Assembly: GCA_039630545.1 (NCBI GenBank)
Contig: JBCNUU010000002.1
Location: 159,994-223,993, forward strand
Direction of reading: 5' to 3'
Length of the DNA: 64,000 nucleotides
Source of the DNA: Endomicrobiia bacterium
GTDB lineage: Bacteria > Elusimicrobiota > Endomicrobiia > DTEH01
Shown here in pieces: positions 20,853 to 64,000 of the stretch (the stretch's first letter is position 1; each line of letters begins with the position of its first letter). The notes below the pieces were generated by a model. That model did no database searches and was not told the DNA's origin. It was given only the letters and a program-made list of their open reading frames with translations. The translations under genes and the position numbers were made by a program.

Positions 20853-20862
20853 ATTTAATTTT

Positions 20863-20936
20863 GGGCGTGTAGTTCAGATGGCCAGAACGCACGGTTCACA
20901 TCCGTGAGGTCAGAGGTTCAACTCCTCTCACGCCCA
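20863..20936 (+). tRNA. tRNA-Val (anticodon CAC); 3' CCA not encoded
   Basis: Acceptor GGGCGTG/CACGCCC, anticodon arm CACGG-TTCACAT-CCGTG, T-arm AGAGG-TTCAACT-CCTCT. Confidence 0.95.
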
Positions 20937-20962
20937 TTTTTATTTATGGAGGTAAAAATAAC

Positions 20963-43564: not shown

Positions 43565-43648
43565 GCCGTGGTGCTGGAATTGGCAGACAGGTACCGCTCA
43601 GAACGGTATTCCCGTAAGGGAGTGGAGGTTCGAGTCCTCTCCACGGCA
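43565..43648 (+). tRNA. tRNA-Leu (anticodon CAG); 3' CCA not encoded
   Basis: Acceptor GCCGTGG/CCACGGC, anticodon arm TACCG-CTCAGAA-CGGTA, long variable arm, GGTTCGAGTCC. Confidence 0.95.
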
Positions 43649-43708
43649 AGAAGGTATTTCTTAGTGGAAAAGTTTTTTATTAATTTTTAATTTTATAAAC
43701 ATACAAGT

Positions 43709-43740
43709 TAATACATATATTATTTAATACATATATTATT
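43709..43740. repeat. Perfect 16-bp tandem duplication TAATACATATATTATT x2
   Basis: Read directly at 43709-43724 and 43725-43740, just upstream of the SD of the sugar-binding protein gene. Confidence 0.85.
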
Positions 43741-43760
43741 TTTTAGGGAGGTTTGAAAAA

Positions 43761-45176
43761 ATGAAAAAAAATAAATACAAATATGTTGTTTTAAATTTAA
43801 TAGTTTTTCTATGTTTGTTTAGTTGCGGAAAAAAAACAAAAGAAGTTTCTGGTAAAAAGACTATAAACATATGGATAATGCCTAACAGTCCAAAACCAGT
43901 GATAGATTTAGAGGATGTTCTTAGTGAATTTAAAAAAGAAAATCCAGATATAGAGATAGTGATTACTGGAATTGATTGGGGAGCTGCGTGGAGTAAAATA
44001 ACTGTAGCAGCAACAAGTGGTGTGGCTCCTGATATCTGTCAGCTTGGCACTACATGGGTTGGAACAATTGCTTCTATGGGAGCTTTGTTGCCTTTAAATG
44101 AGTATATAGATGAAATAGGAGGACCAAAAGCATTTTTGGAAGCCTCCTGGAATACTTCAGGTATAGAAGGTTCTGGAGTAGTGGTTTCTGTTCCATGGTT
44201 TGTGGATGTAAGGGGAATATATTATAGAAAAGATATATTTGAAAAACTAGGATTGACAAAAAAAGATCTGGATAGTTGGGAATCTTTTGAAGCAACTCTT
44301 AAGAAAATAAAAGATGCAAAAGTAGTTTCTGATAAAGAAGGAAATATTTATATAGGTAAAGAAGCAGAAAATATACTTAAAAAAGATCCTTCTTGTAAAA
44401 TAGTAGAACCTTTAGGTATTCCGGGAAAAAATGATTGGAATGTGATTCATAATTTTGTTCCATGGATATGGTCTGCTGGAGGTGATTTGTTGTCCAAGGA
44501 TAGAACAACAGCAATATTTAATACTCCTCAGGCAATGAAAGGAATTTTATTTTATACAGGTCTTGTAAGAAAAGGTTTAGTTTCTACTAAAACCTTAGAG
44601 TTAAATACAGCACAAGTTTCCACCAACTTTGTAAATGGTGATTATGCAATGTATTTTGACACATCACATATGGTTAAGTATATGAGTATTCCTCAAAGTG
44701 AAGGAGGATTTGCTGAAGGTGTTGCTTCTAAAAATTATGATATTGCTTTGTTCCCAAAAGGTCCTGCAGGAAGATATCACTTCTTTGGTGGAAGTAACTT
44801 AGCAATTTTTAAATATACAAAATACCCAAAAGAAGCCTGGAAAGTTGTTGCTTATCTTTGTTCTAAAGAAGCTCAGATTAAGTATTCCCAAAAAACAGGT
44901 TTTATGCCTGCAAGAAAAGATGCTTTTGATGATCCTTACTTTGATAAAGATCCAAAAAGAAAAATATTTAAAGAAGCTACAAAATATGGTAAATCTTATC
45001 CTTGTATTCCATCATGGGGTCCTATTGAACCAATTCTTACAAGAAGATTAGGAATTCTATGGGATTATGTTGCTGGAGTTTATGGAGAATGCACTGATGA
45101 TATAATAAAGCAACAAGTTGATATGGCTGTTCAAGAAGTAAATTCTGTTCTTAAAACTACAATAAGCAAACAGTAA
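43761..45176 (+). CDS. Carbohydrate ABC transporter solute-binding lipoprotein (SBP family 1)
   Basis: Lipobox LFSC; APDICQLGTTWV, VPWFVDVRGIYYRKD and GGSNLAIF. Confidence 0.9.
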   Translation: MKKNKYKYVVLNLIVFLCLFSCGKKTKEVSGKKTINIWIMPNSPKPVIDLEDVLSEFKKENPDIEIVITGIDWGAAWSKITVAATSGVAPDICQLGTTWVGTIASMGALLPLNEYIDEIGGPKAFLEASWNTSGIEGSGVVVSVPWFVDVRGIYYRKDIFEKLGLTKKDLDSWESFEATLKKIKDAKVVSDKEGNIYIGKEAENILKKDPSCKIVEPLGIPGKNDWNVIHNFVPWIWSAGGDLLSKDRTTAIFNTPQAMKGILFYTGLVRKGLVSTKTLELNTAQVSTNFVNGDYAMYFDTSHMVKYMSIPQSEGGFAEGVASKNYDIALFPKGPAGRYHFFGGSNLAIFKYTKYPKEAWKVVAYLCSKEAQIKYSQKTGFMPARKDAFDDPYFDKDPKRKIFKEATKYGKSYPCIPSWGPIEPILTRRLGILWDYVAGVYGECTDDIIKQQVDMAVQEVNSVLKTTISKQ

Positions 45177-45205
45177 TTTTAACAAAGAAAGGAGTTCTAT
45201 AAATT

Positions 45206-46339
45206 ATGAAAGATGTAGTAGAATTTGTTACTGTTATAGTTCCTATAAAAAATTCTGAGAGGACTTTAATTAAACACTTAGAATCTATTGAAAATGTTGA
45301 CTATCCTAGAGATAAATTTGAGGTAATATATGCAGATGGTGGAAGTAAAGACAGAACTTTAGAAATTTTAAAAGATTGGAAAAACAAAAGATTACCTCAA
45401 ATTATAATAATAGAACTTAACAATTGTAAATCCCCTGGAGAAGCAAGAAATAAAGCTTTAGAAATAGCAAAAGGTAAATACATACTATTTACTGACGCGG
45501 ATTGCGTAGTAAAAAAAGATTGGATAAAACAGATAATTTCTCCATTTGAAAAAGATGAAAAAATTGGCATAGTAGGAGGAGAAATCCATACTCTTACAGT
45601 TGAAGACGGAAACGATATAGAAAAATACCTGGAGTTTATTAAATTTTTAAGTGTGAATGGAAGATGTAATGTGAGACAGGAAGGATATTTTCCAGATATT
45701 AAAAAATATCTACCTCATGAAGTGAATGGAAATATTCACAGTAGTTTCTTTGCCACAGCAAATCTAGCTGTAAAAAAAGAAGCATTGTTAAAAATAGGTA
45801 ATAAATTCTGGGACGAGATAACGGGTGAAGATGTGGATTTTAATATAAGAATAAATAAAGAAGGTTACAAACTATATTATCTTCCTTCAGCTATAGTTTA
45901 TCATATTCACAGAGCAAATTTGACACAGTTTAGAAAACAACTATATGGTTATGGTTATGGTCATCCTCTTCTTATTAAAAAACATGCAAAGCAGGTTCTG
46001 GAAATTTGTATTAATTTGAAAGGGAAATACATTTATCTACCCATACCGTTTTTCATAAAGGGGAATATTTATTTAGGTTCTTTTCATTTTATACATATAT
46101 TTTTGGTTCTTACAATTTTAAGTTTAATTTTTAAATGGAGTGTTCTTTCTACGATAATATTTGCATTCCTTACTTTATTATTTAAATATATTTATTTTGC
46201 TCCGCTTTTAAAGCTAAAACCATTAAGTAAATTTTTTAAGTGGTGTAAAATAAAATATCTTTCCAATTTGTCTTTCATATTAGGAGGTATAAAAGGTTCA
46301 TTTGTTTTTGGTGCTATAGACTTAGAAGACAGCTTTTAA
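45206..46339 (+). CDS. GT2 glycosyltransferase with C-terminal TM helices
   Basis: VTVIVP, DGGSKD, ARN, FTDAD and GEDVD; C-terminal hydrophobic segments. Confidence 0.88.
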   Translation: MKDVVEFVTVIVPIKNSERTLIKHLESIENVDYPRDKFEVIYADGGSKDRTLEILKDWKNKRLPQIIIIELNNCKSPGEARNKALEIAKGKYILFTDADCVVKKDWIKQIISPFEKDEKIGIVGGEIHTLTVEDGNDIEKYLEFIKFLSVNGRCNVRQEGYFPDIKKYLPHEVNGNIHSSFFATANLAVKKEALLKIGNKFWDEITGEDVDFNIRINKEGYKLYYLPSAIVYHIHRANLTQFRKQLYGYGYGHPLLIKKHAKQVLEICINLKGKYIYLPIPFFIKGNIYLGSFHFIHIFLVLTILSLIFKWSVLSTIIFAFLTLLFKYIYFAPLLKLKPLSKFFKWCKIKYLSNLSFILGGIKGSFVFGAIDLEDSF

Positions 46340-46371
46340 ACTTCTAATGCTAAAAGAAAGGGACTATAGTT

Positions 46372-48732
46372 ATGAAAATAAAAAAGAAAAAAGACAAAGA
46401 TTTTTATTTTGACAACGAAAATAAAGAATTTATTATTAATAACCCTCAAACACCAACCCCATGGCTTAATTATTTAGGTATAGATGAGTATTGTGCTATG
46501 ATTTCTAATAATGCTGGTGGATATAGTTTTTATAAATCGCCAAAAAGTTATAGAATTTTAAGATACAGGTATAACAACATTACAATGGATCGTCCTGGTA
46601 GATACATTTACATTAAAGAAAAAAAAGATATATGGTCGACATCTTGGCAGCCAATAAAATCAGACTTAAGAAAATATAGATACACAACCATTCATGGCTT
46701 AAGTTATACAAAAATAATATGCGAACATAATTTTATAAAGTCAGAAGTTTTATATTTTGTTCCTCTCGGTGAGAATTTAGAATTATGGGTTTTGACTTTA
46801 GAAAATCTATCAAATAAGTTAAGAACTTTAGATATATTTTCATATGCGGAGTTTTGTTTGTTTGATGCAATGGGTGATCTTACTGATCTTCAATATATTC
46901 AAAATGTTGCCAGGACCAAAATAAATAAAGAAGGAATAATTGAACATTATTGTTTGTTTGCTGGGGGTGAAATAAAAAATGCTTATGCTTTTACTACAGA
47001 AAAATTCTTAGGATACGAAACAGACAGAGAAAAGTTTATAGGTTACCACAATGATGAATCTTCTCCATTAGCAGTTATATCAGGAAAATGTAGCAATTCT
47101 TTGATTTCCGGTGGCAATCCTTGTGCTTGTTATCATTTAAGAGTTTCTTTGAATAAAAAAGAAGCTAAAAAAATTGTTTTTGCTGTAGGAGTTGGTTCTG
47201 CAGATGTGGAAGGAAAAAGATATAAAGAGAAATATTCAAATATTAAAAATGTAGAAGAAGAGTTTAAAAAACTTAAAAACTACTGGGAAAGTGTTCTTGG
47301 TAAATTACAGGTAAAAACTCCCGATAAGAATTTTGACACGGTTGTAAATATATGGTTGCCTTACCAATGTCATACTACTTTTAAATGGTCAAGATCTGCT
47401 TCTTACTATGAAACAGGTACTCATAGAGATGGTTTAGGTTATAGAGACAGCAATCAAGATGTTTTTTCTGTAATTCATGCAGAATCTCAAAGAGTAAGAA
47501 AAAGAATTCTTGATTTAGCCTCTGCTGTGTATAAAGAAGGATATGCATGTCATACATTTCAGCCAATAACCAATACAGGTACAGGAGGAACAGATTATTC
47601 CGATGATCATTTGTGGTTGGTTTTATCTACTACTGCTTATATAAAAGAAACTGGTGATTTTAAAATTTTAGAAGAAGAAGTCGGATATTTTGATGGTGGT
47701 AAAGGAAGCTTGTTTGAACATCTTGAGAGAGTGTTGCAATATGGATTAAAGATGAGAGGGAAACACGGATTATCTTTAGCTTTAAGAGCGGACTGGAATG
47801 ATTGTTTAAATATGAAAGAAGGGGGAGAAAGTGTCTGGACTACAGAACTTCTTTATAAAGCATTAAAAGAGTTCGTTGAATTGTGTGAGTATTTGGGTAA
47901 AAAAGATTTAGTTGCTACTTATAGTAACCATATGAAAGAAGTAAAAGAAGCTTTTGACAAATATTGTTGGGATGGGGAATGGTATCTTTGTGCTTATACA
48001 AATGAAGGAAGAAAAATAGGAACTAAAAACGAGAAATACTGCAAAATTTATTTAAACACAAATACCTGGGCTGTTATAAGTGGTATAGGTGATGAAGACA
48101 AAAATAAAAAAGCACTAGAAAGTGTTAATAAATATCTTTTCACAAAATATGGTTTGAAGTTATTTTCTCCATGTTATCAAGAATTTGATAAAGATGTTGG
48201 TGCTATGAGTTCTTTTCCTGCTGGTTTAAAAGAAAATGGAAGTATTTTTTGTCATGCTAATACTTGGGCGATAATAAGTGAATGTATGCTCGGAAATTCT
48301 GAAGTAAGTTATAAATATTTTGATGCTTTAAATCCAATTCATAGATTAAAGAATATTAATATTCATAAAGTAGAACCATATGTTTACTGTCAAATGATTG
48401 CTTCAGATGAGCATCCAGAGTTTGGTCTTGGAAGAAACTCCTGGCTTACAGGAACCGCATCATGGATGTATGTTGCTGCTACTCAATATATTCTTGGTAT
48501 AGTTCCTACATATGAAGGATTATTGATAAAGCCATGTATTCCTTTAAAATGGAAAAAAATAAAAGTTAAAAGAGAATTTAGAGGATGTGTGTTTCACATA
48601 GAGATTGAAAGGGTTGCTAATAATAACGAAATAAAAGAAATTTTTGTAAATGATAGAAAAATAAATTCAAATATTATAAAAATTGACAAAGATTACAATT
48701 TTTATAATGTAAAAGTTGTATTAGGTAAGTAA
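46372..48732 (+). CDS. GH94 glycoside phosphorylase (cellobiose/cellodextrin/chitobiose phosphorylase family)
   Basis: PWLNYLG, RSASYYE, GYRDSNQD, DWNDCL, KENGSIFCH and NSWLTGTASW. Confidence 0.93.
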   Translation: MKIKKKKDKDFYFDNENKEFIINNPQTPTPWLNYLGIDEYCAMISNNAGGYSFYKSPKSYRILRYRYNNITMDRPGRYIYIKEKKDIWSTSWQPIKSDLRKYRYTTIHGLSYTKIICEHNFIKSEVLYFVPLGENLELWVLTLENLSNKLRTLDIFSYAEFCLFDAMGDLTDLQYIQNVARTKINKEGIIEHYCLFAGGEIKNAYAFTTEKFLGYETDREKFIGYHNDESSPLAVISGKCSNSLISGGNPCACYHLRVSLNKKEAKKIVFAVGVGSADVEGKRYKEKYSNIKNVEEEFKKLKNYWESVLGKLQVKTPDKNFDTVVNIWLPYQCHTTFKWSRSASYYETGTHRDGLGYRDSNQDVFSVIHAESQRVRKRILDLASAVYKEGYACHTFQPITNTGTGGTDYSDDHLWLVLSTTAYIKETGDFKILEEEVGYFDGGKGSLFEHLERVLQYGLKMRGKHGLSLALRADWNDCLNMKEGGESVWTTELLYKALKEFVELCEYLGKKDLVATYSNHMKEVKEAFDKYCWDGEWYLCAYTNEGRKIGTKNEKYCKIYLNTNTWAVISGIGDEDKNKKALESVNKYLFTKYGLKLFSPCYQEFDKDVGAMSSFPAGLKENGSIFCHANTWAIISECMLGNSEVSYKYFDALNPIHRLKNINIHKVEPYVYCQMIASDEHPEFGLGRNSWLTGTASWMYVAATQYILGIVPTYEGLLIKPCIPLKWKKIKVKREFRGCVFHIEIERVANNNEIKEIFVNDRKINSNIIKIDKDYNFYNVKVVLGK

Positions 48733-48734
48733 AA

Positions 48735-49664
48735 ATGAAAATAAAATCTACTGTTGAAGAAATAAAACAGAAAAGTTATGCATATATGTTTATCTTGCCA
48801 ATGGTGCTTGGAATGCTTATCATACATTTTATACCTATGATAATAGGTATAATAATGAGTTTTTTAGATTTAAATCAATATACATTAGCCCAATATTTAT
48901 CAGCTCCATTTGTGGGTTTAAAAAATTACTTTGATGTTCTTTTTAATCCTAAAAGTACTATAAGAATAGGTTTATTACAAGCAGTTAGAAACACTATCAT
49001 TTATACGATTGGAGTTACTTTAGGTACTTTAACAATAGGTATGATAGTAGCTTTGATGTTAAACAAAAACTTCATAGGGAGAAGATTAATAAGGACATTA
49101 TTTTTGTTTCCATGGATAGTTCCTACTTATGTTACTGGGCTTCTTTGGGCATTTATATGGAATCATGAAATAGGCGTAGTTAACTATGTTTTAACAAAGG
49201 TGTTACGTATTGTTGAAAAACCACCGTTTTGGCTTATGGGCCCAAATACTTTGTGGGCTATTATAGTACCAACTGTATGGAGATTCTGGCCATTTTCAAT
49301 GCTTATGCTTTTAGCAGGACTTCAGACAATTCCAGATGAGTTATATGAATCGGCTTCAATTGATGGGGCAAATGAGTGGCAGAAGTTTTGGTATATTACC
49401 CTTCCTTCACTTAAACCTGTTTGGTCTACTTTGCTTCTTGTGAGTATTATTACAAATGTTTATTCTTTTAATATCGTAATAATGATGTTTGGACATGGTG
49501 CTGGTTTTCCTGGAGAGTGGGGAGATCTTCTTATGACGAATATATTTAGAAATTCATTTCAATTATGGCAATACAGTAAAGGAGCTGCTGCTTCTATTGT
49601 TTTGATGATAATGATGATAGGAGTAGTAGCTATCTGGTATAAATTATTCAGGGAGAAATGGTAA
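48735..49664 (+). CDS. Carbohydrate ABC permease (MalF-like)
   Basis: FVGLKNY; EAA loop LYESASIDGA..WQKFWYITLP. Confidence 0.92.
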   Translation: MKIKSTVEEIKQKSYAYMFILPMVLGMLIIHFIPMIIGIIMSFLDLNQYTLAQYLSAPFVGLKNYFDVLFNPKSTIRIGLLQAVRNTIIYTIGVTLGTLTIGMIVALMLNKNFIGRRLIRTLFLFPWIVPTYVTGLLWAFIWNHEIGVVNYVLTKVLRIVEKPPFWLMGPNTLWAIIVPTVWRFWPFSMLMLLAGLQTIPDELYESASIDGANEWQKFWYITLPSLKPVWSTLLLVSIITNVYSFNIVIMMFGHGAGFPGEWGDLLMTNIFRNSFQLWQYSKGAAASIVLMIMMIGVVAIWYKLFREKW

Positions 49665-50506
49665 TGAAAAAGTTGTCCCAGAGTTTTCTTTTTTATTTTC
49701 TTCTTTTGACAATTTTGATAGGAACATTGTTTCCAATATATTGGATGATTATAAATTCTTTTAAAGATAACACTGAAATTTTAACAGGAAAAAGTTTGTT
49801 TTGGCCATCAAGATGGAGGATAGAAAATTACAGAGATATGTGGAAAAATATTAATTTTGGTTTGTATTTAAGAAACAGTTTTATAGTTTGTGGTAGTACT
49901 ATGATAATAGCAATGGTTTTAGCAACATTGGCAGCATATAGCTTAAGTAGATTTAAATTTCCTGGGAAAAGAATTATAAATGATTCAATTCTTGCTACAC
50001 AGATGATTCCAGGGATAATGTTTTTGATACCAATTTATTTAATGTTTGTTAGATTTCATTCGTTAACTAATATTCAACTAATAGGGACATTTCCAGGTTT
50101 AATATTTGTTTATTCTACATTTTTTGTTCCGTTTAGTGTGTGGATTTTACAGGGATTTTTTGCAGCAATACCATATGAGATAGAAGAAGCTGCTTTGATA
50201 GACGGATGCAGTAGACTTCAAATTTTTTTAAAGATAGTACTACCTTTAGCAGCACCAGGAATTACTGCTACAGGGATTTATATCTTTCTTACTGCTTGGG
50301 ACGAACTTATGTTTGCTTGGGTTTTAACCCAAGCAGACACAATTACCATTCCTGTAGGAATAAGGCTCTTTGTAGGCAATTACCAGAACAGATACGATCT
50401 CATGATGGCAGCTTCTACAGTAGCAACCTTACCTGTTATTATATTATTTTTCGCAATGCAAAAACACATTATAAAAGGTCTTACTGCAGGTGCTGTAAAA
50501 GGATAA
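49658..50506 (+). CDS. Carbohydrate ABC permease (MalG-like)
   Basis: EIEEAALIDGC and GLTAGAVKG C-terminus. Confidence 0.93.
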   Translation: MVMKKLSQSFLFYFLLLTILIGTLFPIYWMIINSFKDNTEILTGKSLFWPSRWRIENYRDMWKNINFGLYLRNSFIVCGSTMIIAMVLATLAAYSLSRFKFPGKRIINDSILATQMIPGIMFLIPIYLMFVRFHSLTNIQLIGTFPGLIFVYSTFFVPFSVWILQGFFAAIPYEIEEAALIDGCSRLQIFLKIVLPLAAPGITATGIYIFLTAWDELMFAWVLTQADTITIPVGIRLFVGNYQNRYDLMMAASTVATLPVIILFFAMQKHIIKGLTAGAVKG

Positions 50507-50528
50507 TATATAATTTTGTTTCCTGTTC

Positions 50529-51944
50529 ATGAAAGATTTTTTGTTTTTTCTACTAAGACTTTTTGTTTACTTACTTGTAGCGTTATCTATCTGGTGGATT
50601 ATAAAATATCCTCAATATGTAATTATCATATTTTTGATTTTTCATATAGCAGTTTTACTTGCTTATTTAGCGAATGACAAAGAAATTCAGATTTTTGTTG
50701 TACTGTCTTCTATCTTTATAGCAGGTTCTATTGTTCTTCTTCATAATTTTCAACCTAAATATAATGTTTTAATAGATAAGATAATAATAATCATTGAAAC
50801 TGCATTTATAATAGGCAGTTTTCTTTTTTTACAGAAAAAAAGTTGGGCATTGGAAGTTTACTCTACAAATTTTATAGAGAAGATAGAAAATTTTGAAAGA
50901 GAAATTTCTGAAATATCCGATAATATAAAAGAGATACAGAATAAGATTTCTAATATTAATGAGATAAAAAATAACTTTAAAATTTTAGAAGAAATGATCA
51001 CAACTTTAAGTTCAGTATCTTCTATTTCAGTAATTAAAAATTATGTCGTTAATCTAATTCACAAACTATTACCTGGTGTACATATAAATTTGTATCTTTC
51101 TTCTAAGGAAGTTCCTGAAAATACGTTAGAAGAAGAAATTGTAAAATATATTAATACAACTAATAAATATTTTTTTTCAAACGATGTTAGCTTTCTTCTA
51201 AATAAGTTTAAAACAAACTATTTATATTTTACTTCTTCTGAAATAAAAGCAATATTAGGATTTCCTATTAAAATTTACACTGGAAATGTTGAATCAACTG
51301 GATATTTTATATTTATTTCTCCAAATAAAATTACAGAAGAAAATTTAAGATTATTATCAATCTTTTCGAGTTATTTAGGAATAACTATATCTAATATAAA
51401 ATTAATAGAATATACTCAAAATCTAGCAATAACAGATACACTTACAGGTCTTTATGTACATAAATATTTTAAAGAGTTATTGGAAGAAGAAATTAATAGA
51501 ACTAAATATTATAACAGAATTTTCAGTTTAGCGATGTTTGATATAGATAATTTTAAACAAATAAATGACACCTATGGTCACAATGTGGGAGATATGGTGT
51601 TATTAAAATTTGCAGAAGTGTTAAGAAAAAGGTTAAGAGAAGTTGATAAAATTTTTAGATATGGAGGCGATGAATTTGCTATAATCTTTCCTGATACTAA
51701 TGTTTCTAATGCATTAAAGATATGTGAAGAAATAAGAAATATAGTATTAAATGAAGTTATCGTTATAGGAAATGTTTTAGAAAGTAATATATCTTCTTTA
51801 AACAGGATTAAATTTACAGTTTCTGGTGGTGTAATGGAGTATGACAAAGAATATGACTTAGAAACATTTATAAATATGGTAGATAAACTTCTTTACAAAT
51901 CAAAAACTTCTGGAAAAAATAAAATAACATGCCCAAAGAAATAA
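50529..51944 (+). CDS. Membrane-anchored diguanylate cyclase (GGDEF, RxxD I-site)
   Basis: N-terminal TMs and coiled coil; DTLTGLY, DIDNFK, REVD...RYGGDEF. Confidence 0.92.
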   Translation: MKDFLFFLLRLFVYLLVALSIWWIIKYPQYVIIIFLIFHIAVLLAYLANDKEIQIFVVLSSIFIAGSIVLLHNFQPKYNVLIDKIIIIIETAFIIGSFLFLQKKSWALEVYSTNFIEKIENFEREISEISDNIKEIQNKISNINEIKNNFKILEEMITTLSSVSSISVIKNYVVNLIHKLLPGVHINLYLSSKEVPENTLEEEIVKYINTTNKYFFSNDVSFLLNKFKTNYLYFTSSEIKAILGFPIKIYTGNVESTGYFIFISPNKITEENLRLLSIFSSYLGITISNIKLIEYTQNLAITDTLTGLYVHKYFKELLEEEINRTKYYNRIFSLAMFDIDNFKQINDTYGHNVGDMVLLKFAEVLRKRLREVDKIFRYGGDEFAIIFPDTNVSNALKICEEIRNIVLNEVIVIGNVLESNISSLNRIKFTVSGGVMEYDKEYDLETFINMVDKLLYKSKTSGKNKITCPKK

Positions 51945-53179
51945 TTTTTAGTATTTTAATAATGATATCCTACAGTGTTATAGAGTTTATGTTTAAGTTT
52001 TTGATTTCTAAATATAAATATGAAATTATTTATGTCGTCTCTTTGATATTTTTATTTATCTTATACCTAAGCACACCTGTAAAAGAGTTTTTTATTTTTT
52101 CTTTGTTGATAATATTGGTTACTATTCTTTATAATTTAAATGAAGAAAATAGAAAACAGAAAATAGAAAATAATTATCTTCCACAAATAAAAAGTTTGGA
52201 GGAAAAATTAAATGAATACTGTAAGAAAAAACAGGAGATATCTTCACAATGGGAAAATTTAGAAAAAGAAATGAGAAATATTTTTAATATGTTTTATTTA
52301 GTTGAAGAAATAAATAAAAATTTAAGTGTAGAAAAAATAATAAAAGAGGTATATGATGCAATAAAGGACACATATCCCAACTTAATAAAATATATTGGAT
52401 TGATAAAAGGTTCGAAAAGAGAGATAACATCTATTGTCGAATATCCTCAACCTAGGAGATATATCAGTGAGTTAGCACTTTTTAATGTCAGAAAAGATAT
52501 AATAGTATTTGGTGAGTTTAATATTTATGTTTTTGATTTTGCATTTAATGGTGAAGAGTTGAAAATTTTAGTGGAGTATCAACCTGTAGAGTTAGATGTG
52601 GAATTTTTAGGATTTATTGATTTTATTTTTTCAAAGATAAAGTTAACTTTAAAACGAGCATTGCTTTTTAAGGAAATAGAGGAACTTTCAAGGATAGATG
52701 GTTTAACTTCTTTATATTTGAGAAGATATATACTAAAAAAATTACAGGAAGAAACTATTAGGTCATATAGATATAATACAGTGTATTCTCTTCTTATGAT
52801 TGATATAGATTTCTTTAAAAAAGTAAATGATACATATGGACATCTTGTAGGAGATAAAGTTTTAGTTGAACTATCCAGAATATTGAAAGAATATATAGGG
52901 GGAAAAGGTTTAATTTCAAGATGGGGAGGCGAGGAGTTTTTGGTTTTGCTTCCCTATACAGAAAAAAAAGAAGCTCATTTAATTGCTGAAAATTTAAGAA
53001 AAATAGTGGAAGAAACAAAATTTTGTATGGATGATGTTAGTTTAAATATTACAGTTAGTATAGGAGTAAGTTGCTTCCCTCAAGATGGTGTAGACTACAA
53101 TCAAGTAATTACTGTAGCTGATGGGATGTTGTATGAAGCTAAAAAATCTGGAAGAAATAAAGTAATAAGTAGTAGATAA
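51929..53179 (+). CDS. Membrane-anchored diguanylate cyclase (GGEEF, no RxxD)
   Basis: N-terminal TMs; DGLTSLY, DIDFFKKVNDTYGH and RWGGEEF. Confidence 0.92.
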   Translation: MPKEIIFSILIMISYSVIEFMFKFLISKYKYEIIYVVSLIFLFILYLSTPVKEFFIFSLLIILVTILYNLNEENRKQKIENNYLPQIKSLEEKLNEYCKKKQEISSQWENLEKEMRNIFNMFYLVEEINKNLSVEKIIKEVYDAIKDTYPNLIKYIGLIKGSKREITSIVEYPQPRRYISELALFNVRKDIIVFGEFNIYVFDFAFNGEELKILVEYQPVELDVEFLGFIDFIFSKIKLTLKRALLFKEIEELSRIDGLTSLYLRRYILKKLQEETIRSYRYNTVYSLLMIDIDFFKKVNDTYGHLVGDKVLVELSRILKEYIGGKGLISRWGGEEFLVLLPYTEKKEAHLIAENLRKIVEETKFCMDDVSLNITVSIGVSCFPQDGVDYNQVITVADGMLYEAKKSGRNKVISSR

Positions 53180-53234
53180 AATACATCTCTTTTATTTTTT
53201 CTTATTTAAGTTTACCCTAAAATTTACATAACTA

Positions 53235-53263
53235 TTGACATGCTAATTTTTTATTTATATAAT
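53235..53263 (+). promoter_or_regulatory. Consensus sigma70 promoter of the GH9 cluster
   Basis: TTGACA (53235-53240), 17-nt spacer, TATAAT (53258-53263); SD GGAG before the ATG at 53310. Confidence 0.8.
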
Positions 53264-53309
53264 TATTAATACAGGTAATAACAAGTTTAAATAATGGAGA
53301 AAAATAAAA

Positions 53310-56300
53310 ATGAAGATAAATTTTTTGTGCTTAATGATTTTTTTAACTTTAAATTTATACTCTCTTCCTTCCATAAATAATATTACAGTACAAAATAATC
53401 CTAAATATTTGCTTAAAGGTCAATCCTATGTGGTAAGTTTTTCTTATTCAGGAGGTAATCAACCAAATCAAGATACTATTTTTTATGCTATTGGACTTTC
53501 TACTAACACTATAGCAGAAAAGACTAATTCTCAAACTACTCCGGCACCGGATTATTATCTTACTACTGATGATGGAAGCTCCTCAGTTAACAGCAATGGT
53601 ACAGGAATTGTAAGTAGTAACTATGGTAAAAGACTTCCTGGTGATTCTGGGACTAAAACCATCACAATAACGATTCCTACACATATTCCTGATGGAGAAT
53701 ACTATATAGTTGTAATAGCAAGAGATTACTACTTAGATCAAGCAACAGATTTTAGCTATGGAGTTTCAAATACTAAGTTTGTTGTAGCTTTTAATCAACC
53801 ACCTAAGATATTTGATTTGAGTTTTCCTTTGATAGGTAGTACTTCTACAATATTTAATTTCTCTGCAAGAATAGAAGATCCAGAAGAACAAACCGTTAGT
53901 TGTAGTTTATATATTGATAATCAATTAGTTCTTCCATTTCAGGCTAAATCTTCAGGAGAGACTTGGAGTTATCAGACTTCTCTTTCTTTAGGAGAACATT
54001 CTTATAAGTGGGTTGCTTACGATATTTTTAATTCTACTTCAGTTTATACAGGAGTTTTAAAAGTAACTCAAAATTTTCCTGAAATACAGGATTTAACTTC
54101 TCCTTCAACAGGTAGCATTCATACTACTTTTAATTTTAAATGTATAGTTATAGATCCTGAAAATGAAAATGTAAAAGTCGTTTTGAAAATCAATGACAGA
54201 GAAGTGTTTAATGACACAAAACCATCGGGATCAGAATTTTTTTATATAATTTCTGGAAATCAACTTGGAGGAATAGGGGATTATACCTATCGTTGGGAAG
54301 CCGAGGATATAAACGGCAACAAATCCTCTGCAGTTGTAGGATTAGTGAGTGTAAGAGGAGATTCTCCTCCAATTTTAGAAAATAAAGTATCACCTTTAGC
54401 ACCACTTTATGGAGACTTTGATACGCAATTTTTATTAGAGGTTAAAGCAGTCCCAACTGATAATCCGATAAGTAAAGTTGAGCTCTACATAGATGGTAGT
54501 TTAAAGACACCAACTTTTGATAGTAATTCTCAAACTTACAAATTTCAAATTCAAGGAAGCCAACTTGGATGGGGAGAACACAAGTATAGGTGGATAGCTT
54601 TTGACTCTAAAAATAATCAGTCTAACCCAGTAGAGGGTTTAATTAGAGTAGCTTCTAATAGAATAAAAGTTAATCAGATAGGATATCTTCCCAACTATAA
54701 AAAAATTGCCTTTGTTACTTACTCAGATACCAAACTATGGAATAGTTATTCATCTCAAGGTACTCCTCCTACTAATCCAGCCAGTATAGCTAGAGTAATA
54801 GATGTTAAAACAGGCAGGGTGGTTTTAGATAATATATCGCTTCCAACTCCAGAATGGGATGAAAATTCTTGGGACTATGTTCAGGAAATTGATTTTTCTA
54901 GTTTAACACAAGAAGGAATCTATTGTATAGAAGTTCCAGGTATAGGAAGATCATGTTGGTTTAGGATTTCTAACAATGTATATTACGATGTATTTAAGAC
55001 AGTTTTCAGATCTTATTATCTTCAAAGATGTGGTATAAGTATAAACGACAAGATAAGTGGAGTTTATCATGATGTTTGTCATGTAAATGATGCTTTATAT
55101 TTTAGAAGAAACGATGCTCCTACTTTAAAATTCGATGCTGGAACTCCTAATAAAGGAGGAAGTGATACTATAGGAACTGCTCTTAAGGTGGTCCCTTCAG
55201 GATATTTTAGAGGAGGTTGGCATGATGCAGGAGATTATAATAAATATGCTACTACTATAGCTACAGTTCTTTTACAATTTTTCTGGAAATATGAAAAGTT
55301 TCATTATCTTTTTCAAGATGACGATTTAGATATACCTGAAAGTGGTAATGGAATCCCAGACATTTTAGACGAAGCGAAATATGCAGTTGAATTTTTACTT
55401 AAAATGCAGATACCCAGAGGTGGGTTAGGTGATCCTTCAATAGGAATATATGTTGACTCTAAATATGCTGGAGCTGTATATCATAAATGTACTAATTATG
55501 ATTTTGGTCCGTTTATTACTCCTGACATAGACGGATTAGCAAGATATATAGCAGGAATAACACCTACTGATGTTGGTTTATTTGCAGGTTGTATGGCACA
55601 AGCAGCAAGAATATACAAAGATTACTTCCCAGAACTTGCTCAAAGAGCAAAGCAAGCAGCTATTTTTGCTTGGGAGTGGTTAGAGACTATTCCAGAAAAT
55701 GATCCTTCGTGGATAGCTGGAGGTACAGGTCAACAACCAGAAAATATGCATACAGGTCCATATCTTTCGCGTGCAGGAGATATAGATGAAAGATTTGTTG
55801 CAGCTGTTGAGTTGTTTAAACTTACAGGTGAAAAAAAATATGAGGATTACATACTTTCAAAATATCAAGATGAAAATAACTGGAAGACAGAATTGGGAGC
55901 TCCTGTAGATACCATTTATCCTTTTAATTGGGCAGATATGCATACTTTAGGAATGTTTGATTATTTTGATCTGTTACAAGAAAAAATTGATAAAAACGAA
56001 GTTCTTACTCCAGCTCAACAACAAGCATACAATTTTATTAAAGAAAAAATATTTGCTACTGCAGACAGAGTAGTTAAGGTTGTAAACAACCAGTACGTTT
56101 TTCCTACAACTCCCTATAACTATCCATCAGATGGGAAAAAATATAACAACAAATATAGAGTAGCTTTAGTGGGAGGATATAAGTTTAGCGGATATGGAGA
56201 AGGAGATTGGCCTTATTACAATGAGTTTGTGTGGGCATCAAACAAATTAGCTGTTGCTTATGCTGAAATTTTGATTTTCGCTTATGAGCTTTCAAAAAAG

Positions 56301-59264: not shown

Positions 59265-59293
59265 TATAAAAATAGTTTTTTTCCTTCTCTATT

Positions 59294-62200
59294 ATGAACA
59301 GCAAAAAATCGATTTTAATTTTGTTTTTTAGTATTGTTTTTAGTATTATAAAAGCTGGTGATTATAACTATGTAGATGCAATGGCTAAAACTCTTATGTT
59401 TTTTGAAGCTAACAGATGTGGAAAAAAGGTCAACATTTATAATAGATTTAACTGGAGAGGCCCATGTCATATATATGATGGTATAGATATAGGTGAAGAC
59501 CTCGAAGGAGGTTATCACGATGCTGGAGATCATGTGATATTTGGTATGCCACAAACATATTCATTTAGTACTCTTGGATGGGCGTATTATGAAACTAAAG
59601 ATGTATACGAAAGAACAGGACAGAAAGTCTGGATGCTAAGAACTTTAAAGTATTTTTCAGATTTTTTTATGAAATGTCATAGGAACCCTGATATATTTTA
59701 CTATCAAAAAGGTGATGGAACAATAGATCATAACTATTGGGGACCTCCTGAAATTCAAACATATGATGACTACAAAATAGCAAGAGCCATCAAACATAAA
59801 GCATCATCAGATACACCAGCAGGAGATGTAGCAGCAAATGCTGCAGCAGGTATGGCTTTGATGTATTTAAATTACAAAGATGAGGATTATAATTATGCTG
59901 TTGATTGTTTAACACATTCTTTAACTCTTTATAGGTTAGCTAGAAAGTATGAAGGATTAGGAACGGGTGACGGGTTTTATACTCATGACACATTTGAGGA
60001 CGATATGTCATTTGCTGCAGTTTGGCTTGCAAGAGCCTCAAAAGATTATGGAGATCAACAAATAAAACAAGACTTTGGAAGTATATTAAACTCAATCTTT
60101 GAAGAAAATGTAGTTGACAGTACTGTTACTATTTATCAAAGGTTTTTAGACGACGCAAAACTTTATTTAAGAAGAAAAGCAGGAACTCAAGACCCTGATG
60201 ATTTTCAATACGAACCTTTCTGGCCTTATTGTTGGGGAAACATTTTTATGGGTTCTGTATTACTTTATGGGTTGGAAGTTGATTCTTATCTTAAATCCTT
60301 AGGAAAATCAAATCCATATTTAGCTCAAATAAGAAAAGTTTTAGGAAATTATGCTTCAGGAACTTCTTATTTTTCTAAAACTCCAGGAGGACTTACCTAT
60401 CCTAATACCTGGGGTGTTTTAAGATATGTATCTGCTGCAATGTTTTGTTTTGGAGTTTATCTTAAATATAATCCACAAGAACCGAACTATCAAAGTTGGC
60501 TTCAATATATTAAATCTCAGATTGATTATATTTTAGGAGATAATCCAAGAGTTACAATTGATGTAGATCATCCAGAAGGTTTTTCCAATCCTGGTTCTTA
60601 TATAGTAGGTTGGGGTAAAAACCCACCTAAACATCCACATCATAGAGCAGCTCATGGAAGCAGAACCAACAATATGAATCAACCAAGATATCATAAACAC
60701 ACACTTTATGGTGCATTAGTAGGGGGACCTAATTCGAATGACGTTCATAATGATGTCACTACAGATTATGTATTGAATGAAGTAGCAATCGATTATAATG
60801 CCTCAGCTGTTGCAGGTTTAAGTATCGCTTCATACTTCTGGGGAAACCAGCAAATGCCGCTGCCTGATCCAGAACCAGAACCTCATCCTGGTGATGAGAT
60901 TTATATAACAGCAGTTATGGGACAGGATTCTGGACAAAGATCACAACCTGCTGTGTATCTATATGTAGATACTAACTATCCACCGCAGTTTGTGTCTGAT
61001 TTATCTTATAAGTATTTTTTCGACATTACAGAAATATTGAAAGCTAGTTCTACTTATTCTCATCAAAATATTAAAGTAGAAACAGCATATAATCCAGTTT
61101 CTTCTGCTACAATTTCTTCAGTCTTACCGTATGATATTTCCAGAAATATTTACTATGTAGAAGTTAAGTATAATCAACCATTACCATTTTGTATTACTAC
61201 ACCTATATTTTCTCCATATGCACCATATCAGTTTGCTTTAGTATTTCAAAGTCCAACATGGGAAGAAATATGGGATTCAAGAAATGATTATTCAAGAATA
61301 GCACTTTCTACAGGAAGCACAGCTCAGGAAGCTGTTAAAACATATAGAATTCCTGTTTATAAAAATGGAGTCCTTATTTATGGGACTGAACCTGCAAGGA
61401 GATTTGATCCATTGGACGAGCCTCCTAGAATTTTTATTTCTCGACCTTATCCAAACACAACCTTAAGTGGTAATATTTATTTAGAAGGTTCTGCAGTAGA
61501 TGATAAAGGAATAGAAAATTTTGTTTTTTACATCCATAATCCAGATACCATGCAGATATTATATGTCTCTACAATTACTCAGTATGTACAAGCTCACACT
61601 ACTTATACATTTAACACTTTTTGGGACTCTAAAAATTATCCTAATGGTGTATACCTTGTCAGAATGTTAACCACAGATACAAATGGTCAAACAGCAGTAG
61701 CTATTGAGTGGATAAACATAGACCACACTTTTTCATCATCCCAAAATTCTTATCCTCAAGTAAAGATTGTGTTTCCTGAAAATAATACTTCAATTCAAAA
61801 TAATTTTGAAGTTAGAGCGAACATCACTGATTATACTTCTGTTGCCTATGCAGAGTTGTGGATAAATGGTATATTTGTAAGTTCAAAAACATCCTCTCCA
61901 TATAACTGGTTGATAAACATTTCAAGTTTTGTCGTAGGTTCTACTGTAAGCATAAAAGTAGTAGGTGTTAACATACTTGGTTTATCTAGTTTTGATGAAA
62001 TAAAAATCTTTATATCTTCGTCTCCATTATCCGAATTTATAGCAGATATTATTTTTGTTTCTCCTTCCAGTGGAAGTGTAGTTTCTAGACAGGTGGAAAT
62101 AAATGTGAATATCATTTCTTCTTCTACGATTTCTAAAGTTGAATTTTATATAGATGGTATCTTGAAATTTACAGATACTATTTCTCCATACATCTATCTC

Positions 62201-62869
62201 TGGAACACTTTAGAGATATCAAATGGTTCTCATACTATAACTGTATATGCCTATGATTTTTATGGAAGAGTTTCTTCTAAAACGATTTCTGTAGAAGTTT
62301 TAAATATTATAAATGATAACCCACCACAGATTTCAATTTTAAATCTCATGAATGGTGAAACTATAAACGCAGATAAAACAGTTACGATCAATGTAAAAGA
62401 TGACAAAAAAATAGATAAAGTAAAAATTAAAGTCGGCAATAAACCTGAAGTTGAATATGATCTATCTCAAGAAAATTTAAAAGAAGTAAATATTAATTAT
62501 ACAATAAACCTAACTTTTTTCTTACCAAATCTTTCTTATATTTTTCAAGTTTATGCTGTGGACAGTTCCAGTCAATCTTCATATTTAAATTACTATTTCA
62601 GTATAGCAACATCCTCTCAAGAAACTGAAGATGGTGGTTTTAAGAAAATATATGTGATCTCAAATAATAAAGATCATATAAACGAAAAAATAGAATTTCC
62701 GTTTTCGGTAGATTTATTTGAAGTATTTGACTCAAGAGGCAAAAAAGTATCTTCTCAAAAAAATGTATTAAAATGGGAACCATCTAAAGAGATAAAAAGT
62801 GGTTTTTATAGTTATGTAATTTCACACCAATCTAAAACTTATAAGGGGATTATAATTATTTGCAGGTAA
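59294..62869 (+). CDS. GH9-CBM3c endoglucanase with Ig-like repeats and a short T9SS-like CTD
   Basis: FFEANRCG, DLEGGYHDAGDH, WGVLRY, PKHPHHRAAHGS, LYGALVGGP and NEVAIDYNA. CBM3c-like TNYPP...DLSYKYFFDITE; C-terminus VFDSRGKKV...W...SGFYSYVI...KGIIIICR. Confidence 0.92.
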   Translation: MNSKKSILILFFSIVFSIIKAGDYNYVDAMAKTLMFFEANRCGKKVNIYNRFNWRGPCHIYDGIDIGEDLEGGYHDAGDHVIFGMPQTYSFSTLGWAYYETKDVYERTGQKVWMLRTLKYFSDFFMKCHRNPDIFYYQKGDGTIDHNYWGPPEIQTYDDYKIARAIKHKASSDTPAGDVAANAAAGMALMYLNYKDEDYNYAVDCLTHSLTLYRLARKYEGLGTGDGFYTHDTFEDDMSFAAVWLARASKDYGDQQIKQDFGSILNSIFEENVVDSTVTIYQRFLDDAKLYLRRKAGTQDPDDFQYEPFWPYCWGNIFMGSVLLYGLEVDSYLKSLGKSNPYLAQIRKVLGNYASGTSYFSKTPGGLTYPNTWGVLRYVSAAMFCFGVYLKYNPQEPNYQSWLQYIKSQIDYILGDNPRVTIDVDHPEGFSNPGSYIVGWGKNPPKHPHHRAAHGSRTNNMNQPRYHKHTLYGALVGGPNSNDVHNDVTTDYVLNEVAIDYNASAVAGLSIASYFWGNQQMPLPDPEPEPHPGDEIYITAVMGQDSGQRSQPAVYLYVDTNYPPQFVSDLSYKYFFDITEILKASSTYSHQNIKVETAYNPVSSATISSVLPYDISRNIYYVEVKYNQPLPFCITTPIFSPYAPYQFALVFQSPTWEEIWDSRNDYSRIALSTGSTAQEAVKTYRIPVYKNGVLIYGTEPARRFDPLDEPPRIFISRPYPNTTLSGNIYLEGSAVDDKGIENFVFYIHNPDTMQILYVSTITQYVQAHTTYTFNTFWDSKNYPNGVYLVRMLTTDTNGQTAVAIEWINIDHTFSSSQNSYPQVKIVFPENNTSIQNNFEVRANITDYTSVAYAELWINGIFVSSKTSSPYNWLINISSFVVGSTVSIKVVGVNILGLSSFDEIKIFISSSPLSEFIADIIFVSPSSGSVVSRQVEINVNIISSSTISKVEFYIDGILKFTDTISPYIYLWNTLEISNGSHTITVYAYDFYGRVSSKTISVEVLNIINDNPPQISILNLMNGETINADKTVTINVKDDKKIDKVKIKVGNKPEVEYDLSQENLKEVNINYTINLTFFLPNLSYIFQVYAVDSSSQSSYLNYYFSIATSSQETEDGGFKKIYVISNNKDHINEKIEFPFSVDLFEVFDSRGKKVSSQKNVLKWEPSKEIKSGFYSYVISHQSKTYKGIIIICR

Positions 62870-62964
62870 AATTTTTTGTGTATTTATTGATAAAATTTCA
62901 AAAAAATTGTAAATAATCTTAACAAATATAACTCTAGCATTTTTAGGAAGGAGGTTTTGTAATT

Positions 62965-63156
62965 ATGATGAAAGTAAAAATGTTAATTTTAGTTTTTCTT
63001 TTATCAGTGTTGATTTTCAATATAATCACTCAACCTATGCTTCTTTTTGCTGAAAGTTCTTCATCACAAACAGAAAAAAAAGAAACAGTTGAAATTGGAA
63101 AAACAGATCTCATTCTTATCTTGTTAGCTGTTATTCTTATAATTCTTATACTTTAA
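62965..63156 (+). CDS. Small protein with an N-terminal signal peptide and a C-terminal TM helix
   Basis: Strong SD AGGAAGGAGG; hydrophobic N-terminus ending LFA, polar linker, terminal LILILLAVILIILIL. Confidence 0.65.
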   Translation: MMKVKMLILVFLLSVLIFNIITQPMLLFAESSSSQTEKKETVEIGKTDLILILLAVILIILIL

Positions 63157-63250
63157 AAGTATTTTTTAATTTCAATGTTTCAATTTCAAATTTTTTGTTT
63201 ACATTTAGATTATAACAGGATAATACAACTAAATTATCTAAGGAGGAAAT

Positions 63251-64000
63251 GTGAAAAAGAATAGCAAACTTCTATTTTTATTTGTTTTTTATATTTTAAT
63301 AAAAAGAAATATCTTTTCAGAGGAACTAATACTTCAAGCAGAAAAGACAAAAATACCTTCAAGACCTATAATAATTGATGAAACGGAACCATTATATGGG
63401 ACTTTAAATAAAGAATTTAATTTTAGAGCCAGAATAATTGAGACAGCTGACTCAGTAAAGGAAGTAAGCTTATATATTAATGATAAAAAATATGATGTAA
63501 AGCTTAAACCTTCAGGTTTTTATGAGTATCAAGTCAAAGGTTCTCAGTTAGGATATGGGATGCATTTTTATAAGTGGTATGTTGTTGATAAAAAAGATAG
63601 GGTTGCTACTCCAGTATATGGAGTAATAAAAATTGCCTCTAATAGAATAAAAGTAAACCAGGTAGGATATAGAACAAAAGCAAAAAAAATAGCTTTTATA
63701 ACTTACAGTGACACAACAGACTGGACTGGTGAGGATGAAGGGGTTCCTCCTAAAAATTTTGCTAATAAATTTAAAGTAATCAATGCAATTACTAAAAATC
63801 CAATTTATGAGGGTAGTCTAACTAAACCTAAATGGGACGAAAATTCATGGGATTATGTTCAAAAGGCAGATTTTAGCTCTGTAGTTACACCAGGGATTTA
63901 TTATATTAAGGTTGAAGGCATAGGAGAATCGTGCTGGTTTTTAATAGACGATAACGTCTATTCTGATGTGGCAAAGACATTGATGAGGTCTTATTATCTT
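63251..64000 (+). CDS. Third GH9-family protein (paralog of 53310..59264), 3'-truncated by the window; absent from the ORF track
   Basis: SD AGGAGG, GTG start, open to the window end. PLYG...GSQLGYGMHFYKW, ASNRIKVNQVGY...KKIAFITYSDT, PKWDENSWDYVQ..DFSS and RSYYL all match the first GH9. Confidence 0.88.
   Translation, partial: MKKNSKLLFLFVFYILIKRNIFSEELILQAEKTKIPSRPIIIDETEPLYGTLNKEFNFRARIIETADSVKEVSLYINDKKYDVKLKPSGFYEYQVKGSQLGYGMHFYKWYVVDKKDRVATPVYGVIKIASNRIKVNQVGYRTKAKKIAFITYSDTTDWTGEDEGVPPKNFANKFKVINAITKNPIYEGSLTKPKWDENSWDYVQKADFSSVVTPGIYYIKVEGIGESCWFLIDDNVYSDVAKTLMRSYYL

Follow-up and report, generated by a model that had tools for sequence, protein, structure and literature searches.

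We analyzed a 64,000-nt stretch of DNA (the window; G000:C12:159994-223993) from an Endomicrobiia genome (GCA_039630545.1, denoted G000; relatives from the same family are denoted G001-G009). Its final 20 kb carry a block of genes for sugar uptake, phosphorolysis, cyclic di-GMP (c-di-GMP) synthesis and secreted cellulases. The block comprises a substrate-binding protein (SBP) of an ATP-binding cassette (ABC) transporter, a family 2 glycosyltransferase (GT2), a glycoside hydrolase (GH) family 94 phosphorylase, two permeases, two GGDEF diguanylate cyclases and three GH9 genes (Table 1). All lie on the plus strand, in the co-oriented arrangement described by a first-pass annotation of the sequence. 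From the SBP gene to the second cyclase gene the intergenic gaps are -16 to 32 nt, and a terminator scan found none convincing within the block. The GH9 genes are preceded by a sigma-70 consensus promoter, which suggests that they form a separate transcription unit. The cluster extends 30 kb beyond the window, to the contig end.

Table 1 Features of the block (window positions) and of associated loci elsewhere in the source genome. ORF, open reading frame; Ig, immunoglobulin-like; CBM, carbohydrate-binding module; T9SS, type IX secretion system.
Feature	Position	Strand	Remarks
tRNA-Leu(CAG)	43565..43648	+	Directly 5' of the cassette
Predicted operator	43699..43718	+	Direct repeat with 10-bp period, before SBP; present too in G002 and G003
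SBP1 (SBP_bac_1)	43761-45176	+	Family 1 sugar-binding lipoprotein, CbpB/beta-GlyBP type; Pfam and PDB matches
GT2 glycosyltransferase	45206-46339	+	Two C-terminal hydrophobic segments; Pfam match; always between SBP and GH94
GH94 phosphorylase	46372-48732	+	Sole GH94 in the genome; Asp477 and phosphate-site residues kept, short lid loop
ABC permease 1	48735-49664	+	Pfam match
ABC permease 2	49658-50506	+	Pfam match
GGDEF1 membrane diguanylate cyclase	50529-51944	+	Four hydrophobic segments, GGDEF motif, RxxD I-site
GGDEF2 membrane diguanylate cyclase	51929-53179	+	Three hydrophobic segments, GGEEF motif, no I-site
Sigma-70 consensus promoter of the GH9 cluster	53235-53263	+	Perfect; only 12/12 match in 20 kb
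Predicted operator	53267..53286	+	Directly after the GH9a -10 box; matrix match
GH9a, 1984 aa	53310-59264	+	Signal peptide, Ig repeats, CelD_N+GH9, CBM11-fold module (~1205-1445), stalk, T9SS-like tail
GH9b, 1191 aa	59294-62869	+	GH9-CBM3c (Cel9G type), four Big_7, T9SS-like tail
Conserved ORF, 62 aa	62965..63153	+	Signal peptide and C-terminal hydrophobic helix, no Pfam match; also in G002 and G005
Predicted operator	63211..63230	+	Before GH9c; matrix match
GH9c, 1263 aa	from 63251	+	CelD_N+GH9, weak CBM11 match, no sorting tail; ends 3 kb beyond the window
GH9d, InlB-repeat lipoprotein, LacI, GH9 split by one TGA, GH52/GH116-like protein	downstream of the window
SBP2, xylulokinase, transketolase, xylose-isomerase-like protein, GH5 without signal peptide	further 3', toward the contig end
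GntR-LacI regulator, GH48a, another GH5	contig end
GH9, CBM4 protein, GH8, GH44, GH48b, GH5	opposite contig end
GH9-CBM9, GH8, GH9, GH10, mannan locus	contigs C6, C77, C3, C1

We compared SBP1 with proteins of solved structure and found that the closest were Thermus beta-GlyBP (7C63, E 7e-113) and Clostridium thermocellum CbpB (7X0I, E 2e-87), with all others far behind. In C. thermocellum, CbpB is reported to bind G2-G5 and to belong to the only cellodextrin importer, whose ATPase is unlinked (Clo1313_2554); the same source describes a CbpB homologue operon in Thermus and a beta-GlyBP ATPase outside its cluster (PMC9601137). SBP1 is predicted to bind cello-oligosaccharides. Its W73 and W99 match beta-GlyBP Trp residues, and a paralogue 33 kb downstream, SBP2, keeps the third Trp. 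No ATPase gene was found within the block. A MalK/MsmX-type ATPase with the MalK OB fold is encoded after obgE (G000:C56:39506-40621) and replaced our first candidate, the unscanned C1:131445. The SBP homology, the two permeases and the unlinked MalK-type ATPase together correspond to a CbpB-type importer. Separately, SBP1 homologues of 48-55% identity were seen near GlmS and short-loop GH94s in six loci of unrelated lineages (L032, L035, L036, L037, L047, L058). GT2 and its relatives form a tight family of ~378-aa proteins (P0164-P0271), the 50-57% relatives being labelled Omnitrophota and others, and at one locus (L045) a GT2 relative also adjoins GH94 and sugar ABC genes.

The GH94 enzyme matches every residue listed in Table 3 of PMC6720390 (R341, H628, Q674, T693, R352, D359, D477, E621 and F626). 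Its Asp-to-Glu spacing of 144 equals that of CdpB and CdpC, compared with 164 in CbpA, and the Phe of loop L1 is also as in CdpB and CdpC. The extended lid loop of cellobiose phosphorylase, which blocks longer substrates (PMC6720390), was not present in this enzyme. Because this loop is lacking, the enzyme is likely of the cellodextrin type. We found no GH3 in eight genus genomes and no GH1 in the four genomes carrying GH48. Since neither family is present, the single GH94 is predicted to act on cellobiose and cellodextrins alike, with possible help from the cytoplasmic GH5 and GH116-like proteins. The SBP and GH94 comparisons agree with the earlier proposal of clostridial-style uptake and phosphorolysis, resembling transporter B with GH94.

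The catalytic motifs of the GH9 enzymes are intact. DAGD, the catalytic Glu motif and the His-Arg motif are all kept in GH9a (DAGD at 639, the Glu motif at 1123), GH9b and GH9d, and the GH9c sequence has the same motifs. The nearest solved relatives of GH9a are CelD_N-type endoglucanases, and its only close relatives in its length class were four 86-88% copies and three GH9c-type proteins. The first-pass annotation had assigned a CBM11-like module to GH9a and a CBM3c to GH9b. The former had no Pfam CBM11 match at E 0.01 and had C. thermocellum CBM11 as its top fold match, in a fold model of low confidence (pLDDT 56); its best score in the ESM Atlas (0.88) is a lead only. The latter was confirmed by Pfam (CBM3, E 2e-7) and by alignment of Cel9G (1G87) over both GH9 and CBM3c (E 1e-103).

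In total, the genome has eight GH9 matches, two GH48, four GH5, two GH8, GH44 and GH10, plus xylose genes. Because two GH48s and five further GH9s lie beyond the window, the case for cellulolysis is stronger than the window alone could show. Both GH48a and GH48b keep their catalytic motifs; beyond its three closest relatives, GH48b has none above 50% identity. The 21 genes that were summed make up 3.3% of the genome. The earlier observation that no dockerin, cohesin or SLH domain is visible held among the scanned proteins. A cellulosome was rejected, with no dockerin on scanned enzymes and no cohesin in four genus genomes (positive control matched). A Bacteroidota-type SusCD polysaccharide utilization locus was likewise rejected, since SusD was absent from five genomes (control matched), in line with the earlier report of no SusC/SusD pair.

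To characterize export, we built a profile from 14 C-terminal tails. It gave 34 domain matches, of which 31 ended at most seven residues from the C-terminus and three were internal; 14 of the 31 tail-bearing proteins belong to the training set. The profile matches solved T9SS C-terminal domains (CTDs) in the PDB (NucA, PorU and PorZ), and GH9d scores above the TIGR04131 cut-off. Tails were found on GH9a, GH9b, GH9d, GH9f, two GH8 and two GH5 enzymes, and were lacking from GH9c, the split GH9, GH9g, GH9h, GH48b and GH44, three of which have a lipoprotein-like Cys19 after a hydrophobic stretch. The idea that all three GH9s of the window are T9SS-type cargo was not supported, as GH9c has no sorting tail. 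A tail also occurs on a 6718-aa ORF at a contig end (G000:C34:121050-141206).

A 1733-aa SprA-like protein (G000:C12:74846-80047) matches SprA_N at E 0.004 and SprA_N clusters in the ESM Atlas at 0.98-0.99. Ten barrel candidates match PorV or PorQ models, one of them above the NF033709 cut-off, and PorV-like genes directly follow tail-bearing genes. The SprA-like gene was found in 55 of 61 class genomes, and in 32 of 37 from the family whose genomes are smallest. We infer that the SprA-like and PorV-like barrels date back to the ancestor of the class. GldM and GldN were not found in three genus genomes, in a search where one of two Bacteroidota controls scored above cut-off and GldK and GldL were not included, and G000 had no Peptidase_C25 match for the PorU sortase, with no control matched. 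The first-pass proposal of T9SS-like surface export thus stood as far as tails, SprA-like and PorV-like parts are concerned, with GldM, GldN and PorU not found. The export route may be like the T9SS translocon, yet we do not class it as T9SS. One further region (G000:C6:12205-26101), a candidate energizer replacing GldLM, combines PorV-like genes and genes for tail-bearing proteins with ExbB, a TPR protein and two ExbD-like genes.

A candidate for oligosaccharide import across the outer membrane is encoded at G000:C6:2779-4953. This protein is predicted to form an outer-membrane barrel of ~20 strands, capped at the N-terminus by a CBM11 that matches C. thermocellum CBM11 both by profile (E 8e-6) and by fold (TM-score to the target 0.74-0.79). 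A fold search with the barrel returned generic outer-membrane barrels at low TM-scores, with no specific solved homologue, and no family was assigned. Among 61 class genomes, the CBM11-capped barrel was found only in G000, G002 and G003, and its operon carries the predicted operator described below. Two other barrels were noted. A probable small outer-membrane barrel of 176 aa (G000:C6:7483-8013) occurs only beside glycanase clusters in the loci seen, and lies directly 5' of the SBP gene in G005 and two metagenome loci. A mannan-type locus (G000:C1:111950-131072) contains GH5, CBM27-like proteins, an SBP, permeases and a 536-aa barrel with a weak alginate-export match.

We then searched for a shared operator. 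A matrix trained on six G002 and G003 sites gave 10 matches of at least 17 bits in G000, none of them inside ORF interiors. These lie 5' of GH9a, SBP1, GH9c, the GntR-LacI gene, GH48b, the CBM4-GH8-GH44 operon and the barrel operon, at the GH8b start, before a gene cut by the C6 end, and before a LacI gene split in G000 and followed by a GH10 gene cut by the contig end (G000:C3:31802-33753). Shuffled intergenic DNA (50 shuffles) gave a mean of 0.48 matches and a maximum of 3, and whole-genome shuffles at a lower threshold gave 2-6 compared with the 10 observed. Six of the 10 are non-orthologous to the training sites, with two or three already noticed by eye before training. Exact matches were confined to the four GH48 genomes, the source of the pattern; a pattern allowing one mismatch was discarded as unspecific, being present in nine of 10 family genomes. 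The direct repeat, new here, is predicted to mark this block plus other glycanase operons. The GntR-LacI gene (G000:C12:248510-249640), beside GH48a, is itself marked by the operator at its start. G000 and G002 carry the gene and G003 a fragment of it; it was not found in G005. Its product is probably the repressor acting on the shared operator.

The first-pass annotation had treated c-di-GMP genes as an integral part of the system, a view that the comparison did not support as worded. We found that a GGDEF1 orthologue is present in 10 of 10 family genomes, some of them without GH9. It lies after obgE in G001, G004, G005, G006, G007 and G008, elsewhere in G009, and within the cassette only in G000, G002 and G003, whose obgE site has no copy. 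The pair occupies the cassette position in three of four GH48 genomes and in none of eight metagenome cassette copies, and the cassette GGDEF1 copies cluster as a long-branched group. The idea that the pair originated with the cassette was rejected. By pattern match, the genome encodes three HD-GYP proteins, a PilZ-like motif protein and two ATPases carrying an MshEN-like motif, which make c-di-GMP control of pili and attachment plausible. The same three genomes hold the regulator, the CBM11-capped barrel and the relocated GGDEF pair, a distribution suggesting that the system exists in both an elaborated and a simpler form.

The genome is 1.60 Mb, 95.5% complete and 0.17% contaminated, and the 254-kb contig with the cassette also bears PNPase, PolA and a ribosomal protein operon. 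Placement in Elusimicrobiota, as first suggested, agrees with the labels of the GH94, PNPase, GH48b and GT2 relatives. Of the 61 GH94 loci returned, the top three (81, 77 and 72%) are Endomicrobia/Elusimicrobia records and the others are at most 44% identical. The window PNPase is 66-79% identical in these three genomes and a fourth Endomicrobia record; such records may overlap the G-genome set, so counts were not summed. Close relatives of GH48b and GT2 also carry Elusimicrobiota or Endomicrobiia labels. The presence of lpxD and waaA confirmed the earlier reading of a lipopolysaccharide-making organism. The IVYWREL fraction of ORFs of at least 250 aa is 0.424, which we take to correspond to ~63 °C by a formula that is sensitive to low GC. 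The organism is probably thermophilic, and its divergent GH9 and GH48 enzymes are probably heat-stable.

GH48 was detected in only four of 401 phylum genomes (G000, G002, G003 and G005), all of one genus. GH9 was detected in 11 of 401, including two outside the genus (G142 and G063) with at least four weaker-scoring, divergent GH9s each and no GH48; GH9 alone is not unique to the genus. GH94 was matched in five of 10 family genomes, with four close matches in the GH48 genomes and two distant ones in G006. The constant core is SBP-GT2-GH94-permease-permease followed by a glycanase. The synteny check suggested with the first-pass annotation recovered SBP-GT2-GH94-permease in three other genus genomes and in eight of eight metagenome loci, and because of this recurrence the cassette is not a chance arrangement. 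Five of the eight loci extend to a following GH5 and GH9b. A different, hydrolytic strategy is indicated by G001 (C43, C54; 98% complete), which has two GH9s, one GH1 and no GH48 or GH94.

A 31-gene tree separated G000 and G003 from G006, G002, G001 and G005 with full support (G003 being represented by only 1761 aligned residues), with GH48 genomes on both sides. For eight of eight cassette genes G002 is nearer to G000 than to G005, while the housekeeping genes show the reverse (76 vs 73%). This suggested that the cassette was transferred within the genus; the alternative is loss in G001 and G006. The same tRNA-Leu, a possible integration site, precedes the SBP gene in G003; a tRNA-Arg does so in G002, and no tRNA is found at the G005 locus.

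What the sequence shows directly is the genes, their intact catalytic motifs and their signal peptides. On the favored reading, the block is probably the conserved uptake-and-enzyme core of a non-cellulosomal cellulase system, in which most enzymes would leave by a motor-less T9SS-like route, with CbpB-type import and GH94 phosphorolysis. In the mechanism we propose, GH9 and GH48 enzymes would cut cellulose at the cell surface, the tail-bearing enzymes crossing the outer membrane via the SprA-like and PorV-like barrels, while the tail-less GH9c, GH9g, GH9h, GH48b and GH44 would be lipoproteins or periplasmic. Oligosaccharides might enter through the CBM11-capped barrel, a weaker step. SBP1 and SBP2 would then deliver these sugars to the two permeases, with the stand-alone MalK-type ATPase supplying the energy, and GH94 would release glucose-1-phosphate from the cellodextrins, a route favored because GH1 and GH3 are lacking. 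The shared operator would be bound by a repressor, for which the GntR-LacI protein encoded next to GH48a is the probable candidate. Co-transcribed cyclases could raise c-di-GMP and so promote attachment, the least certain step. Our confidence in the barrel, the identity of the regulator and the c-di-GMP link is lower than in the main mechanism. A fuller version is offered tentatively, as a possibility that we would not yet favor: that crystalline cellulose is broken down in a probably thermophilic 1.6-Mb Elusimicrobiota through a fourth kind of architecture, with clostridial-type GH48 and GH9 enzymes on a motor-less T9SS-like exporter native to the class, a CBM11-capped barrel replacing SusCD, CbpB-type import, a single GH94 for cellobiose and cellodextrins alike, one operator-controlled regulon and captured cyclases that couple induction to c-di-GMP attachment, the package being mobile within the genus.

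Several observations weigh against the main mechanism. A single TGA interrupts one GH9 gene (G000:C12:232936-236082), and GH48a (G000:C12:249654-252940) has its tail out of frame; both are whole in G002, and either decay or assembly error could account for the breaks. His303 of SBP1 replaces a beta-GlyBP Trp that SBP2 retains, so the paralogues may differ in favored chain length. The GH9a and GH9b tails match no Pfam or NCBIfam CTD model and were recognized only by the in-house profile trained on them. The SprA-like protein matches TIGR04189 at E 1e-22, below the NCBIfam cut-off, and its profile has no match in the PDB. Of the 10 operator matches, four have orthologues among the training sites. 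No regulator or barrel match was obtained in G005, a genome that has GH48 and the ABC-GH94 core and whose GGDEF pair lies elsewhere. CBM11 and beta-GlyBP are reported to bind mixed-linkage glucans also.

This last point bears on an alternative that we consider unlikely, in which the organism uses the same uptake route to scavenge hemicellulose and beta-glucans in soluble or amorphous form (mixed-linkage glucan, xyloglucan, glucomannan and xylan) beside true degraders, and itself does little to crystalline cellulose. CBM11-fold modules dominate, beta-GlyBP and CbpB bind laminaribiose too (PMC9601137), and the genome holds a mannan locus besides xylose genes, GH10, GH8 and GH16. In a study of cellulose-trapped hot-spring cells, 15 of 19 Elusimicrobia cells were co-sorted with a Goldbacteria cellulolyser, and the authors judged that their Elusimicrobia may bind rather than degrade cellulose (Doud 2020, PMC7031533). 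No strong crystalline-cellulose CBM (CBM2 or CBM3a/b type) was matched in the scanned G000 proteins, several G000 genes being cut by contig ends. Against scavenging, G001 and G002 bear larger GH9-CBM3 proteins, one in G001 with two CBM3 stretches, and a G000 contig end holds a tail fragment of the matching kind. G000 also has two GH48s and a Cel9G-type GH9-CBM3c, a combination that is the usual signature of crystalline-cellulose degraders.

Periplasmic cutting of chains pulled through outer-membrane barrels has been proposed for Cytophaga and Fibrobacter, and the tail could likewise be a FlgD-like Ig spacer on periplasmic enzymes. FlgD is indeed the best PDB match of the tail profile, a CBM11-capped barrel exists, the tail is missing from five complete cellulase genes, and the searches found no GldM, GldN or PorU. 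We nevertheless regard this as improbable, given the extreme C-terminal position of the domain in all but three matches, cargo of up to 6718 aa whose long Ig stalks fit surface display, and the PorV-like genes that directly follow tail-bearing genes. Surface export and periplasmic cutting can also coexist. That the block serves chitin or chitosan, through a GH9 glucosaminidase and a GH94 chitobiose phosphorylase, is very improbable. Vibrio chitobiose phosphorylase aligns almost as well as cellobiose phosphorylase (E 3e-187 vs 4e-193) and shares the short loop. This reading was rejected because GH18 is absent from five of five genomes (control matched), the GH9 relatives of solved structure are endoglucanases, both CBM3c and GH48 occur, and the SBP is of the beta-glucoside type. 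An origin by mis-binning or mis-assembly of another lineage's DNA is hardly credible either, even though one 88% relative of GH9a (P0123) is labelled candidate division WOR-3 in NCBI. The housekeeping genes on the same contig, the low contamination, the recurrence of the core in three genomes and eight metagenome contigs, the cassette adjoining housekeeping genes in G002 and a cassette GC3 of 0.15-0.19, similar to that of PNPase, all argued against it, and it was set aside.

The favored reading, a non-cellulosomal cellulase system, combines known parts in an unusual way, in a phylum not described as cellulolytic. With C. thermocellum transporter B and clostridial GH94 (PMC9601137, PMC6720390) it shares a homologous SBP, two permeases, the lack of a linked ATPase, a GH94 beside the transporter and GH48 and GH9-CBM3c enzymes. 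It differs from them in its diderm host, the absence of cohesin and dockerin, a GT2 inside the operon, His for Trp in SBP1 and a single GH94 that is cellobiose-phosphorylase-like in sequence yet has the cellodextrin-type short loop. Like the T9SS-dependent cellulolysis described for Cytophaga hutchinsonii (PMC11205867), it has non-cellulosomal cellulases with sorting-type tails and SprA-like and PorV-like barrels; unlike the system described there, it has GH48, ABC import and phosphorolysis, with no SusD and with GldM, GldN and PorU not found. 'Ca. Cellulosimonas argentiregionis' (Goldbacteria) is a hot-spring diderm of a sister phylum with many GH5/8/9/44 enzymes, CBM11 as the main module, cellobiose phosphorylase and GH9s that are active (PMC7031533). 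Our genome belongs to another phylum, and the main text of that paper mentions no GH48, nor do its sections 7 and 8 mention a secretion route or operator. Thermus thermophilus beta-GlyBP (7C63), the closest solved SBP, likewise comes from a diderm with the ATPase off-cluster, whereas here the transporter is linked to GH94 and large cellulases. The Thermus CbpB operon (PMC9601137) and the Goldbacteria GH9s with cellobiose phosphorylase (PMC7031533) are precedents for ABC uptake with GH94 in a diderm.

Hot-spring Elusimicrobia were enriched 500-fold on cellulose particles, and the phylum was described as largely without cellulase machinery (Doud 2020, PMC7031533); the supplementary enzyme inventory of that study may bear on the question. 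Glycosyl hydrolases for sugar polymers are mentioned in the available text of Meheust 2020 (bioRxiv 10.1101/765248), cellulose not, and the main texts of two hot-spring CAZyme papers (PMC8857248, PMC11071339) link no cellulases to the phylum. The earlier concern that the locus might already be described in its lineage was not borne out: within the sources searched, subscription journals being outside them, we found no paper on cellulolytic Elusimicrobiota or on T9SS in the phylum. If the proposed system is real, the few groups of cellulose degraders with GH48 would be joined by another phylum, and the system would bear on the cellulose-trapped Elusimicrobia, for which degradation was left undecided in the text of Doud 2020. 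It would also offer clear cargo for a T9SS-like machine beyond Fibrobacteres-Chlorobi-Bacteroidetes, seemingly without a Gld motor, name a candidate for cellodextrin passage over the outer membrane without SusCD, and supply divergent, probably heat-stable GH9 and GH48 enzymes together with a predicted operator.

Other features of the window lie outside the cellulase block. A TonB-dependent receptor gene at 9015-10898 follows apparent cobalamin salvage genes. The region at 10974-19237 holds a PorV-like gene and encodes a 1723-aa DUF2341/BNR/FN3 protein, whose separated end may be a 659-aa ORF bearing a T9SS-like tail. A tRNA-Val gene (20862-20937) lies between lpxD and PNPase.

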